Below the pieces are notes generated by a model. It had not been told where the DNA came from, searched no databases, and saw only the letters and a list, made by a program, of their open reading frames with translations. A stretch of DNA of 64,000 bases from Bacteroidota bacterium (GTDB lineage: Bacteria; Bacteroidota; Bacteroidia; Bacteroidales; UBA4417), in contig JAKLFM010000001.1 in NCBI GenBank assembly GCA_022711175.1, positions 1,777-65,776 on the forward strand, in the 5' to 3' direction. Every line of letters starts with the position of its first letter. Positions within the stretch are counted from its first letter, which is position 1. A program made the translations under genes and the position numbers. Below, one piece after another: positions 33,869 to 43,958 of the stretch.

Positions 33869-34518
33869 AAATGAAACGATATATCCTACTGGTATTCACA
33901 CTCTTATCACTGACTGCTGGAGCGCAATCCTTCCAGATCGCATTGCTAAAATACAACGGCGGCGGCGACTGGTATGCCAACCCAACCTCGCTTACCAACC
34001 TTATTGATTTTTGCAACAAGAACCTGGGAACCAACATCAGCAAGGATTACGCAACCGTGGATGTGGGCAGTGCCGAGATTTTCGATTATCCTTTTGTGCA
34101 CGTCACCGGGCATGGCAATATCATTTTCAACGACCAGGAAGCGCTAAACCTGAGGAACTACCTGTTGGCCGGCGGTTTCCTGCATATCTCCGACAATTAC
34201 GGCATTGATAAGTTCATCAGGCCGCAGATGAAGAAGTTGTTCCCCGAACTGGATTTTGTTGAACTGCCTTACTCCCACCCTATTTACCACCAGAAATACA
34301 ACTTCCCTAGCGGCCTGCCCAAAATACATGAACATGACAACAAGCCTGCCCAGGGTTTCGGACTGCTATGGGAAGGGAGACTGATCTGTTTTTATGATTA
34401 CGAATGCGACCTTGGCGACGGTTGGGAAGACCCCGACGTGCACAAGGACTCACCTGAAAAACGGTTGAAAGCCTTACAGATGGGGGCGAATATGATACAG
34501 TATGTGTTTACGAAGTAG
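33865..34518 (+). CDS. DUF4159 domain-containing protein
   Basis: It has a signal peptide and the motifs LKYNGGGDWYANPTSL, TGHGNI, GGFLHISDNYG, IHEHD and YECDLGDGWED. I recognise these as the conserved Bacteroidota DUF4159 family. Confidence 0.75.
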   Translation: MKMKRYILLVFTLLSLTAGAQSFQIALLKYNGGGDWYANPTSLTNLIDFCNKNLGTNISKDYATVDVGSAEIFDYPFVHVTGHGNIIFNDQEALNLRNYLLAGGFLHISDNYGIDKFIRPQMKKLFPELDFVELPYSHPIYHQKYNFPSGLPKIHEHDNKPAQGFGLLWEGRLICFYDYECDLGDGWEDPDVHKDSPEKRLKALQMGANMIQYVFTK

Positions 34519-34521
34519 AAG

Positions 34522-34610
34522 TTCCGGTTTCAAGTTTCAAGTTGCAAGTTTCAAGTTGCAGGCACCAGATTACAGCTTCAAGTTTCAAGTACCGGGTGCC
34601 AGGTTTCAGC
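34522..34610. repeat. 7-bp-periodic degenerate tandem array (junction spacer, copy A)
   Basis: It reads TTCCGGT TTCAAGT TTCAAGT TGCAAGT TTCAAGT TGCAGGC ... TCAAGTT TCAAGTA CCGGGTG CCAGGTT, starting directly after the DUF4159 stop. Confidence 0.75.
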
Positions 34611-34654
34611 AAACTGATTAGAAATGTTGGAAAAATAAATATAAGAAATGTTGA

Positions 34655-35404
34655 TTAATCAAAAGATTTCTCCTGAACAATATTACCTTTTTCATCAAAC
34701 TTTGTAATTCTTGTTTTTTTTCCACGTTCGTCGTATTCTTCCTGAGAATGAATAACGCCATTTTTATAAGAATCAACGACACTTCTGTAAATACCTTCTT
34801 TAAATGAATATTTTTTCCAGTGATCTTTATTAATCCGCCAAATATCAAGCGTTCCAGTGAACTTATTATTAATCAATACTTTAACAAGCCCATCTATCGC
34901 GCCGTAATAATCATACTGCCATTCGCCCGATGATGTCACCTGGCCACGGTCATTTTTCATTGCGACCTTTAATTCTTTTCCCTCAGAAATAAAAATATCT
35001 TCTTCGTGGTTTTCAATATCCAAATAAGTACTGTCAATCAATCCTTCTGAACTAATGATCTCAAAATGCTTATCAGAAGATCTGGAGTATCGCGTCACTC
35101 TAACCACTTTTGTATTAACATATTCAATCTCTTTACGCAGTCTGCCATCCGGAAAATTTATTTTCCATACACCAATTGGTTGACCATTATCATCAAAATA
35201 GTACTCCTTGTAAATAACATTGTTAGCATTTACATTCTGCCATTTTCCTATTTGCAACCCATTCTTAGTTATCCCCTGTTTTGTAAAACGCAGATATACA
35301 GAGTTATCTTTATTTGTAATCTCCAGCGTTTGAGCATCAATTTTAACATACGAAAGAAGTGCCAGCGCAATGCAAAGCAAGCATCTAAAACATCTGATTC
35401 TCAT
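34655..35404 (-). CDS. MORN-repeat-variant / YwqK-like secreted protein
   Basis: It has a signal peptide and repeated G.W..Y..(D/N)G motifs (YFDDNGQPIGVWKINFPDGRL, KNGVIHSQEEYDERGKK). The gene is markedly AT-rich compared with its flanks. Confidence 0.5.
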   Translation of the reverse strand: MRIRCFRCLLCIALALLSYVKIDAQTLEITNKDNSVYLRFTKQGITKNGLQIGKWQNVNANNVIYKEYYFDDNGQPIGVWKINFPDGRLRKEIEYVNTKVVRVTRYSRSSDKHFEIISSEGLIDSTYLDIENHEEDIFISEGKELKVAMKNDRGQVTSSGEWQYDYYGAIDGLVKVLINNKFTGTLDIWRINKDHWKKYSFKEGIYRSVVDSYKNGVIHSQEEYDERGKKTRITKFDEKGNIVQEKSFD

Positions 35405-35507
35405 GATTGATAGAAATATATCTTTAACAATCGATTAATAAATACAAATATCGAAAAAATAAAATCACATTGAAGAAGGTTCAATGGTAACGCAAATATG
35501 AATCCGG

Positions 35508-41047: not shown

Positions 41048-41110
41048 CTATTTCAATGCTGTAATCTGCTCCTCCAACACCTTAATTCCGACTCAGCAGC
41101 AGCCTGCTTT
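41048..41110 (-). pseudogene. second, 63-bp remnant of the valS 3' end (stop plus ~19 codons)
   Basis: CTATTTCAATGCTGTAATCTGCTCCTCCAACACCTTAATTCCGACTCAGCAGCAGCCTGCTTTT aligns with CTATTTTAGTGCTGCAATCTGCTCCTCAAGCACCTTAATCCTTGATTCGGCATCTGCCTGCTTTTT at 41304-41368. Confidence 0.75.
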
Positions 41111-41236
41111 TATGATTATGAATGCGACCTTGGCGACGGCTGGGAAGATCCCGATGTGCACAAGGACTCCCCCGATAAAAAGCTGAAAGCCTTACAAATG
41201 GGGGCGAATATGATACAGTACGTGTTTGCGAGGTAG
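41104..41236 (+). pseudogene. detached, diverged copy of the DUF4159 3' end (last 43 codons plus stop)
   Basis: It translates in frame as CFYDYECDLGDGWEDPDVHKDSPDKKLKALQMGANMIQYVFAR*, versus CFYDYECDLGDGWEDPDVHKDSPEKRLKALQMGANMIQYVFTK* in the intact gene (34387-34518). Confidence 0.85.
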
Positions 41237-41239
41237 AAG

Positions 41240-41302
41240 TTCCGGGTGCCAAGTTCCGGGTGCCGAGTTTCAAGTTTCAAATGCCGGGTGCCAGGTTCCG
41301 GA
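41240..41302. repeat. 7-bp-periodic degenerate tandem array (junction spacer, copy B), 9 heptads
   Basis: It reads TTCCGGG TGCCAAG TTCCGGG TGCCGAG TTTCAAG TTTCAAA TGCCGGG TGCCAGG TTCCGGA and ends one base before the valS stop codon. Confidence 0.75.
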
Positions 41303-41303
41303 C

Positions 41304-43958
41304 CTATTTTAGTGCTGCAATCTGCTCCTCAAGCACCTTAATCCTTGATTCGGCATCTGCCTGCTTTTTACGCTCAATTTCAACCACTTCGGGTTTGGCA
41401 TTGGCCACAAAGCGTTCGTTTGAGAGTTTTACCATCACAGTTTTCAGGAAGCCCCGGGTGTATTCCAGTTCCTGCGTAAGCTTGGTGATTTCGGCTTCAG
41501 TATCAAGCTGATGTCCCAGCGGCACATAAAACTCGGTGGATTTAATGATAAACGACAATGCGCCGCTCACTTTTTCATCAACATATTGTATCGGTTCCAG
41601 GTTGCAGAGTTTCTCAACCACGCTGTCGAAGGTAAGATCGGGCTGTTCGTTGTTGTTCTTGCGGATGAACAATCCGATTTTCTCCTTAAACGAGATATTC
41701 TTCTCCTTGCGAATCGTGCGAAGCGCCATCACCACCTCTTCGGCAATAGCAAACTTTTCGAGCATGGCAGGATTGTATTCCCTTTGTCCCGGCAACTGTG
41801 AAACCATTATACAATCGTTCTCCTGCCTGTCGCGGAGCCTGTGCCAGATTTCTTCCGTGATGAACGGCATAAACGGATGCATAAGCTGCATCAGCTCTTC
41901 GAAGAAACTGATCGTTGCATCATAAGTGGTTTTATCCATCGGCTGCTGAAAACCAGGTTTGATCATCTCGAGGTACCAGGAGCAGAAGTCATCCCAGGTG
42001 AGCTTGTAAACCGTCATCAGCACTTCGCTCAGGCGGTAATCGTTGTAAAGGCTGTCAATCGAAGCCAGTGTTTCGTTCCAGCGCGCATCGAACCATTTCA
42101 CGGATGCTGCAGCATAATCGGGTTGCGGAAGGTTTTCATCCACTTTCCAGCCTTTCACCAGGCGAAGGGCATTCCATACCTTGTTGCTGAAGTTACGCCC
42201 CTGCTCGCAAAGTACCTCATCGAAAGGCAGGTCGTTGCCGGCGGGTGAAGTGAGCAGCATACCAACGCGCACACCATCGGCGCCGTATTTCTCCATCAAG
42301 TGAATAGGATCAGGCGAATTGCCGAGCGATTTGCTCATCTTCCGGCCGATCTTGTCTCGCACAATCCCTGTAAGGTAAACATGACGGAAAGGAATTTCTT
42401 TGGGGTATTCAAGTCCTGCCATGATCATGCGAGCCACCCAGAAGAAAAGAATTTCCGGTGCCGTAATCAGGTCGTTGGTCGGGTAATAATATTTAATATC
42501 CTCATTATCAGGGTAACGAATGCCATCGAAAACCGAAATCGGCCACAGCCACGACGAGAACCAGGTATCGAGAACATCTTCATCCTGGCGAAGGTCGCCT
42601 GCCTGTAGTTCAGGTTTATTGAATTGTTTGCGGGCTATTTCAACGGCTTCATCAGCCGACTTAGCCACAACGACCTGGCCAGTAGGCAAATAGTAAGCCG
42701 GGATGCGCTGCCCCCACCACAGTTGGCGGCTGATGCACCAGTCGCGCACGTTTTCCATCCAGTAACGGTAAGTGTTTTTGAACTTATCAGGATGGAATTT
42801 CACGGTATCATTCATCACAACATCCAGCGCCGGTTTTGCCAGTTCAGGCATCCTGAGGAACCACTGCATCGAGAGCTTGGGCTCAATCACTTCGTCGGTA
42901 CGCTCACTATAACCAACCTTGTTCACATAATCTTCGATCTTCACGATGTGGCCGGCAGCCTTCAGTTCATGAACAATTTTCTTCCTTACGTCAAAACGGT
43001 CTTCACCCACATAAAGCTGTGCCTTCGAACTCAAAGTCCCGTTGTCGTTGAAAATATCGATGGTTTCCAGGTTGTATTTCTGGCCGATCATGTAGTCGTT
43101 CACATCGTGTGCCGGGGTGATTTTAAGGCAACCCGTACCGAATTCACGGTCAACGTACTCATCGCTGATCATCGGTATACTGCGGTTGAGCAACGGTACA
43201 AGCACACGTTTTCCGGTCAGGTGTTTGAAACGGTCATCTTCCGGATGGTAGCACACAGCCGTATCACCAAGTATGGTTTCAGGGCGGGTGGTGGCTATGG
43301 TAACCCACTCATCTTCAGTTCCTTCCACATGGTAGCGGACGTAATATAGTTTCGACTGAACTTCCTTGTAGATCACCTCCTCATCAGAGAGTGCGGTAAG
43401 TGCTTTCGGGTCCCAGTTCACCATGCGCACACCGCGGTAAATGAGCCCTTTGTTGTACAAATCAATAAACACGTTGATCACCGAATCGTAACGGGCTTCG
43501 TCCATGGTAAAGCAGGTACGGTCCCAATCGCAGGAAGCGCCAAGCTTCTTAAGTTGCTCGAGGATAATGCCACCGTGCTTCTCCTTCCATTCCCAGGCAT
43601 GGGCCAGGAACTCATCACGCGAAAGCGACGATTTTTCGATGCCTTCCTCCTTGAGTTTGGCAACAACCTTGGCTTCGGTAGCAATGGACGCATGATCGGT
43701 ACCCGGCACCCAGCAGGCGTTTTTCCCCTGCATGCGGGCACGGCGAACCAGCACATCCTGAATGGTATTGTTGAGCATATGCCCCATGTGCAAAACGCCG
43801 GTGACGTTTGGAGGAGGAATTACAATGGTGTAGGGTTCGCGTTCGTCAGGGACTGAACGGAAAAACTTTTGTTCTAACCAATAGCTGTACCATTTGCTCT
43901 CAATCGCCGTAGGGTCGTACTTGCTGGGGATTTCCATAGTGAATTGTGCGTGTTTCAT
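41304..43958 (-). CDS. valS: valine--tRNA ligase
   Basis: 884 aa with the HIGH motif ([12 protein letters not shown]), the KMSKS motif (KMSKSLGN) and a C-terminal coiled coil. Confidence 0.95.

Follow-up and report, generated by a model that had tools for sequence, protein, structure and literature searches.

We analyzed a 64,000-nt stretch of DNA from an uncultured member of the Bacteroidota (GenBank assembly GCA_022711175.1, contig JAKLFM010000001.1; hereafter the window), and the locus in question is the gap between two convergent core genes, a DUF4159 gene (D) and valS, in which three genes for secreted proteins are interspersed with truncated copies of the 3' ends of both core genes. This D-valS gap is probably a transfer hotspot free of mobile elements and built by homology-anchored illegitimate recombination, a reading that draws on the truncated gene tails, on the short microhomologies at which they are joined, and on the gap states of sister species.

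From left to right, the window reads D - sA - MORN - V' - T9a - T9b - up - V'' - D' - sB - valS. The left core flank is the intact D (33865-34518, plus strand; Pfam PF13709, E value 3.8e-68), preceded by the RsmE gene (33137-33868, plus strand), and RsmE-DUF4159 synteny was found in more than 100 relatives. The right core flank is the intact valS (41304-43958, minus strand), with Pfam matches to tRNA-synt_1, Anticodon_1, and Val_tRNA-synt_C. Between them lie two heptad spacers, sA (34519-34610) and sB (41237-41303), two copies of the valS 3' tail on the minus strand, V' (35508-35741) and V'' (41048-41107, recognized by self-alignment and sister-species collinearity), and D' (41100-41236, plus strand), a copy of the DUF4159 3' tail recognized by its alignment to D. 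The MORN cassette (34611-35507, minus strand) consists of a 44-nt downstream segment, a MORN_2/YwqK-like gene with a weak MORN_2 Pfam match (34655-35404, minus strand), and a 103-nt AT-rich upstream region. T9a (35765-37384) and T9b (37418-40894), both on the minus strand, are cargo genes of the type IX secretion system (T9SS) with Por_Secre_tail matches; T9b, 1158 aa at full length, also matches Peptidase_M43 (pappalysin-type). Upstream of T9b is the 153-nt region termed up (40895-41047), delimited by alignment to two sister-species loci, L082 and L190 (loci of relatives are given L numbers throughout).

This anatomy was obtained by self-BLAST and gene calls, and it agrees with the original prediction, made from the letters of the window alone, that tail copies, two cassettes, and spacers lie between DUF4159 and valS. 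Some of its details had to be adjusted. The copy of the valS 3' end placed at 35508-35750 is indeed present, but its homology stops at about 35741; V'' and D', described as directly fused, do adjoin but actually overlap in an 8-nt microhomology at 41100-41107; and the claim that both cassettes are AT-rich holds clearly for the MORN gene (34.3% GC, GC3 of 0.30) but only mildly for T9a and T9b (42-43% GC versus 49-50% for the flanks and 45.5% for the window).

Self-BLAST revealed three significant matches at the locus, in line with the predicted D-tail and valS-tail repeats: 35526-35741 with 41318-41534 (V' versus valS; 81.6% over 217 nt, E value 2e-55), 34386-34560 with 41104-41279 (D' plus heptad spacer; 85.8% over 176 nt, E value 3e-53), and 41048-41111 with 41304-41368 (V'' versus valS; 81.5% over 65 nt, E value 7e-11). 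The only other internal repeat in the window was 62 nt long and matched the C-terminal domain of T9a to that of T9b. The reading frame of V' stays open over 76 codons and closes with a stop of its own after the distinctive tail ...EEQLILMRK*, whereas V'' comprises the last ~20 valS codons plus the stop and carries one 1-nt deletion. The frame of D', 44 codons long, is likewise open and ends in a stop at the same position as in D, from which it differs by 10 synonymous and 4 conservative codon changes.

We then considered where these tails had diverged, using Nei-Gojobori estimates of nonsynonymous (dN) and synonymous (dS) divergence. The dN/dS ratio (omega) was 0.064 for D/D' (dS 0.69) and 0.088 for V/V' (dS 1.02), and that of true orthologue pairs between the window and L082 was 0.04-0.07. 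Because the ratios match the level of orthologue pairs, nearly all divergence of the tails must have built up in working genes of other lineages, and V', V'', and D' are thus orthologue tails from such lineages, truncated recently. Consistently, the nearest relative of D' is the DUF4159 gene of L190 (93.2%), which is nearer than the resident D. Compared with all sampled valS tails, V' and V'' show identities of 65-82.5%, V' itself (about 76-81.5%) being an outgroup to all of them, and since the identities are this low the source lineages of V' and V'' are taken to be unsampled. A segmental duplication of the D-valS junction within the genome, followed by divergence and insertions, would produce an order such as V''|D'-sB-valS, which resembles the novel joint of a tandem duplication. 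However, dS values of 0.7-1.0 with omega of 0.06-0.09 indicate copies that diverged as functional genes, and the affinities of D' (93% to L190) and of V' point away from the resident genes, which makes this origin nearly negligible in probability; duplication in situ followed by decay was dropped on the dN/dS values.

The tails have also entered public gene annotation. V' (35508-35741) is called as a Val_tRNA-synt_C gene of 44-68 aa, and a 56-aa "DUF4159" open reading frame (ORF) with a CTG start at 41066-41236 is an antisense reading of V'' that runs into D'; judged from their sequences, these small ORFs are probably annotation artefacts. As for the neighboring genes, public calls place T9a at 35765-37240 (491 aa), and public records carry DUF4159 as 215 aa, the 217-aa TTG-start version being absent from them.

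The two novel joints were located next. At J2 (41100-41107), where V'' meets D', the perfect 8-nt microhomology CTGCTTTT is common, 8 of 8 nt, to valS (+56..+63) and to the L190-type DUF4159 (-137..-130); its context is ..GCCTGCTTTTTACG.. in valS and ..GATCTGCTTTTATGATTATG.. in the L190-type DUF4159. J1 (35737-35745), placed by a three-way comparison of the window valS with the T9a-downstream sequence of L082 and L190, is the point at which V', at +243 from the stop, meets the T9a-downstream sequence at ATTC(C), a microhomology of 4-6 nt. Both novel joints thus lie at short microhomologies within the 3-10 nt typical of homology-facilitated illegitimate recombination (HFIR), whose joints of 3-10 bp have been shown experimentally in Acinetobacter, Streptococcus, and Pseudomonas (de Vries & Wackernagel 2002, Prudhomme et al. 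2002, and Meier & Wackernagel 2003, as summarized in PMC6382021). The valS tails were cut at +243 (V'), +63 (V''), and about +59 (a relic in L187), and since the cut points vary between events, the pattern is that of illegitimate recombination and not of a targeted system. With microhomology joints and three different cut points in valS, the uncharacterised mechanism targeting convergent 3' ends that the original prediction had envisaged is not needed.

A search for mobile-element signals gave no candidate, as had been anticipated for integrases, transposases, and terminal inverted repeats. Pfam scans of 39 window ORFs (60831-61286 and 63427-63957 left out) revealed no integrase or transposase domain, and the precomputed Pfam annotation of the identical Joint Genome Institute (JGI) contig, covering 31304-53958, listed no recombinase. 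Seven ORFs elsewhere in the window had no Pfam match of any kind, and all of them are more than 13 kb away from the D-valS locus. No terminal inverted repeats were found at the cassette edges in the repeat search, no tRNA or Rfam family was detected, and the cassettes showed no similarity to phages or plasmids. A scan for sigma-70 promoters and terminators yielded matches at chance level with models that are ill-suited to Bacteroidota. An insertion sequence or transposon was thus looked for and neither a boundary inverted repeat nor a transposase was found; for an element integrating into a gene 3' end, there was no recombinase within or beside the insert, no reproducible breakpoint, and no identical core.

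Elements that integrate into the 3' ends of genes typically leave a displaced 3' tail of the target at one end of the insert. The locus could accordingly be the relic of one or two site-specific integrative elements that used the valS 3' end and supplied a replacement tail, their integrase having since been deleted. Displaced 3' tails are present, as expected for such elements, and a 44-nt stretch is identical between V' (35568-35611) and valS (41361-41404). However, this stretch lies in a strongly conserved coding segment, and because L082 has it with only 1 mismatch, the identity reflects coding conservation; the 44 nt were therefore dropped as a candidate attachment-site core. Moreover, no integrase, excisionase, or remnant of either was seen, T9a and T9b fill their insert (with non-coding gaps of at most 153 nt), the valS tails end at three positions, the presumed element end holds the tail of the neighboring gene together with chromosomal spacer (D'-sB), and the cassettes match neither phage nor plasmid. 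We consider such a relic very unlikely. Being directly repeated, the 44 nt could allow the 5.8-kb T9a-T9b block to loop out, but a variant of this kind was not seen.

We further compared the D-valS gap across relatives. The convergent D/valS pairing is kept across the Lentimicrobiaceae, and in distant relatives the two genes lie between 15 bp and 8.7 kb apart, with lysC-lysA, mscS, or an Fe-S oxidoreductase operon in between. Within one genus there are five gap states, the window's included (window; L082 and L190; L084; L187). L082/L083 and L190-192 have D, ~80 nt, T9a, a T9b remnant with the C-terminal domain only, up, and valS; L084/L085 have D, another T9SS gene, a T9b remnant, up, MORN, and valS; and L187-189, which have no T9 genes, have D, a shorter sA, MORN with its upstream region, a V'-type relic of ~59 nt, ~48 nt of sB-like sequence, and valS. 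Empty short D-spacer-valS junctions occur in L009, L029, L113, and L128, and the D'-sB-valS segment of the window is collinear with them, so that its likeness to an empty site, pointed out earlier, is borne out. Empty and single-cassette states, which the original prediction had proposed to look for in related genomes, do therefore exist.

The remaining parts of the window have counterparts as well. The up region is 81% identical to L082 (9485-9599, ending 8 nt before the valS stop) and 88% identical to L190, in which up is likewise collinear together with the valS tail; up-V'' is collinear with up-valS of both loci, the 8-nt spacing being kept. The T9a product is 68% identical to that of L082 and 88.6% identical to that of L190, T9a being collinear with both, and the collinearity continues through the T9a-downstream region as far as J1. 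Because up-V'', the T9a-downstream region, and the MORN part are each collinear with a sister state, the window can be read as a concatenation of three junction modules, each found singly in sister species. As to MORN and valS in L084, the intergenic sequence between them cannot be aligned with that of the window (45%), and gene order alone is common to the two.

Not every gene in the gap need have been imported. Since the dS of T9a between the window and L082 (1.08) resembles that of the flanks (0.9), T9a may have been inherited vertically. Full-length T9b was found only in the window's species, and in three sister lineages its place is taken by a C-terminal ORF of 101-121 aa together with the upstream region (L082 9115-9480, L084 6855-7160, L190 240-596). 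These remnants are consistent with internal deletion, either recurrent or inherited.

The MORN cassette provides a relative date. Between the window and L187, dS was 0.54 for RsmE, 0.63 for DUF4159, 0.63 for ValS, and 0.69 for an FAD oxidase, and only 0.17 for MORN, which is 92.6% identical at the nucleotide level and shows 23 synonymous differences where about 60 were expected. These values showed that the MORN cassette, as judged from synonymous divergence, has a younger common ancestor than the genomes that carry it, and they imply that the window's species and L187 both gained MORN well after splitting. The high-identity tract extends from within the heptad spacer (~34600) to the first ~40-60 nt of V', and the same V'-type tail adjoins MORN in both species, cut at +243 in the window and at about +59 in L187. 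Thus, the cassette moved horizontally and took with it part of the valS tail of a third lineage. The earlier proposal that cargo travelled together with flank ends of other lineages is supported here both by the dN/dS of the tails and by the low MORN dS relative to the value of about 0.6 for the genomes.

We also asked if the arrangement could be an assembly product. It was recovered at 99.9-100% identity and without gaps in at least 12 samples or assemblies, some records differing by 1-9 single-nucleotide polymorphisms (SNPs). These include a 38-kb contig (JGI 3300010429), a 102-kb contig of a metagenome-assembled genome (GCA_035913675.1, with 7-9 SNPs), a 7.2-kb contig that covers the whole D-to-valS span (ERZ761563 / GCA_035390545.1), and shorter contigs from the European Nucleotide Archive (ENA; ERZ27257455, ERZ27257456, ERZ795054, and ERZ28614311), JGI (3300025706, 3300025715, and 3300009776), and Logan (SRR28709969 and SRR28984802). 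J1 is crossed by several contigs and J2 by at least four records, from different assemblers. A chimeric assembly of co-occurring related strains has some points in its favor, since related species share a sample series (Ga0209099 is the source of L082 as well as of L084), short-read contigs end in the 44-nt repeat (L162 and L166 at 41394; L186 at 35583 and 41391), and one contig, L181, is possibly chimeric. However, assemblies with longer k bridge both copies of the repeat, and the joints share only 4-8 nt, much shorter than the k-mers of any assembler and too little for a misjoin at J1 or J2. With the identical structure returned by different assemblers and both joints spanned, we dropped the chimera as practically without probability.

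Every contig carrying an exact D, MORN, T9a, T9b, or ValS protein of the window's species has this one arrangement. Thus, the D-valS gap is fixed in the window's species, and variation is seen only between sister species. The variable locus of the original prediction is accordingly confirmed in that gap states differ between sister species, but not within the window's species, all of whose contigs are identical in arrangement. The one exception, L181 (ENA ERZ27257480 k141_385999, 1.46 kb), aligned to 33386-34517, is 99.7% window-type over ~1 kb of RsmE-D; after a 31-nt switch zone it becomes 100% identical to L082, and this part takes in the final ~50 nt of DUF4159, the spacer, and T9a. It also carries an 80-nt divergent patch in RsmE with 16 mismatches. 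Either two species really recombined here, crossing over in the DUF4159 tail, or MEGAHIT produced a chimeric contig. L181 is the sole sign of excess homologous recombination in the flanking core genes.

The heptad spacers were examined separately. sA (units GTTTCAA / GGTGCCA; Tandem Repeats Finder [TRF] period 7/14 at 34527-34560) is an expanded version of sB (units GTTCCGG / GTGCCAA; TRF period 7/14 at 41237-41301), the ends of the two aligning with each other, and the L187 version of sA is 40 nt shorter. The spacers folded no better than shuffled sequence (z-scores between 0.8 and -0.9). Right after the DUF4159 stop, relatives (L004, L005, L094, L097, L006, L002, L090, L096, L113, L128, and L013) have tandem arrays whose period is again 7 (also 14 and 21) but whose units differ in sequence; these are often followed by an inverted array, giving a potential hairpin with a heptad-periodic stem. 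Another heptad array occurs in the window at 21913-21987, and 2.07 Mb of relatives' loci yielded 125 TRF arrays of period 7, 14, or 21 with scores of 50 or more, which far exceeds the numbers for neighboring periods. The STRR repeats of cyanobacteria are likewise heptanucleotide tandem repeats. More generally, simple-sequence repeats with heptamer units form a class that is abundant in bacteria (Mrazek et al. 2007, as cited in PMC4679880). The spacers resemble this class in being intergenic tandem heptamers with a lineage-dependent copy number; they differ from it in that the unit sequence at the same genomic site changes between species.

Such arrays might nevertheless suggest a landing pad, in which an unrecognised, host-encoded recombination system acting in trans would use the heptad spacer or the convergent 3' ends to exchange small cassettes, with short flank pieces, between related species. 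The left edge of the transferred MORN tract lies inside a heptad array, arrays follow the DUF4159 stop in many relatives, and at least three independent joints cluster in one small gap. However, the heptad units are species-specific and belong to a common repeat type, J1 and J2 lie outside the heptads, the breakpoints are not reproducible across events, and no candidate enzyme is encoded nearby; selection against disruption of valS and DUF4159 would suffice to cluster the joints. Taken together, these points leave a landing pad highly improbable.

Thus, we reasoned that the gap was assembled by homology-anchored illegitimate recombination. At least two recombination events with chromosomal DNA of related species would have joined three junction modules, D-spacer-MORN-valS, T9a-T9b-up-valS, and the empty D-spacer-valS. 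In each event, one side of the incoming linear DNA would pair with a homologous core gene or shared spacer, and the other side would be sealed by illegitimate joining at a short microhomology, through HFIR or an equivalent microhomology-mediated repair. Each event would keep valS and DUF4159 intact and leave the displaced or imported 3' tail behind as a scar (V', V'', or D'). Survivors would be limited to recombinants with intact valS and DUF4159, and because of this the joints would cluster in the extreme 3' tails and in intergenic DNA. The events could have come in either of two orders, which fit equally well. A resident D-T9a-T9b-up-valS could have gained D..sA-MORN-V'(243) from the left via J1, with D'(133)-sB-valS tail entering from the right via J2; or a donor already holding J1 could have been imported whole into an empty D-sB-valS recipient via J2. 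The HFIR mechanism itself, together with the order and direction of events, is what we infer from the scars.

A Campbell-type integration would start instead from a circularised T9a-T9b-up-V''-D'-sB-valS tail, closed at J1, which entered a D-sA-MORN-valS locus by one crossover in the valS 3' region. V' and the valS tail would be the expected direct repeats around the 5.8-kb T9a-T9b block, with 44 nt identical, and the recipient state D-MORN-valS exists in L187. However, the same two illegitimate joints are still needed, which makes this route a variant of stepwise illegitimate joining and not a different kind of process, the donor must already hold J2, and V' differs from all sampled valS tails over its full length with no hybrid pattern at the crossover. 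We regard it as unlikely.

Several observations weigh against the homology-anchored reading. Along D and valS, a sliding comparison with L082, L084, and L187 gives a flat identity profile with no boundary of a donor tract, and the left edge of the MORN tract falls in the heptad spacer and not in D, so the MORN transfer may have relied on a very short anchor, or on illegitimate joining at both ends. The lineage that donated V', which would have a complete valS with the tail ...LILMRK*, was not found, the protein search with the V' peptide giving only short fragments and the window ORF. Among 30 loci with both genes only the window had extra tails, and L187, added later, is the second case. L181, the sole candidate for a variant within the species, could be a MEGAHIT chimera. 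Finally, the route of DNA entry into this uncultured group, natural competence or other, is again something that we infer.

Elsewhere in the window, a BNR/PKD T9SS cargo gene upstream of RsmE (29411-33085) diverges between sister species far above its neighbors (proportion of synonymous differences, pS, 0.75-0.77; dN 0.14-0.16, versus L187, L082, and L190), and it is either fast-evolving or itself exchanged. A GGC-rich repeat (29201-29294, periods 15-24) at the 3' end of a TPM-domain gene (28501-29304) probably codes for a Gly-rich tail of that protein. A low-GC block (26-36%) at 452-3016 encodes a Bro-N protein and a protein with WYL/WCX domains, along with two small ORFs that had no Pfam match. 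With no bearing on the D-valS finding, this block is possibly a small islet of mobile or defence genes.

The locus was finally set against known systems. It resembles HFIR in having foreign DNA beside a conserved gene, joints of 4-8 nt, variable breakpoints, and no dedicated recombinase. It differs in that HFIR was defined by experiment in naturally transformable bacteria, whereas here it is read from scars in uncultured Bacteroidota, and in that no homologous anchor tract is delimited at D-valS, where core genes adjoin every module and identity is flat. Hotspots flanked by core genes and free of mobile elements, with recombination at the flanks, have been described in 80 species (Oliveira, Touchon, Cury & Rocha 2017, PMC5635113), and D-valS shares with them a single core-gene interval with differing accessory genes, no integrase or transposase, and apparent turnover by flank recombination. 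In contrast, the double homologous recombination of those hotspots is scarless, whereas the events at D-valS are one-sided and illegitimate and leave tails, and variation at D-valS lies between species and not within the window's species. With integrative elements of gene 3' ends, in which a partial target duplicate stands in attL or attR, the locus shares truncated tails beyond the inserted genes and a target gene kept intact; it lacks their recombinase, conserved core, and reproducible breakpoint, and one of its tails is that of the convergent neighbor, with chromosomal spacer attached.

Thus, the D-valS locus is a clear natural example of a known process and does not point to a new mechanism. 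Because double homologous recombination is traceless, exchange at hotspots is usually inferred statistically; here, in an uncultured member of the Bacteroidota that is widespread in metagenomes, the valS and DUF4159 tails make up a nested record from which at least two to three exchanges between species can be read. The locus offers microhomology joints, intermediates in sister species, and a dated cassette (MORN dS of 0.17 versus about 0.6). It also carries a warning for annotation, as public assemblies list the scars among their genes, as short Val_tRNA-synt_C and DUF4159 entries. For this group, it provides a worked natural example of the HFIR-like gain of genes for secreted proteins, the T9SS cargo.

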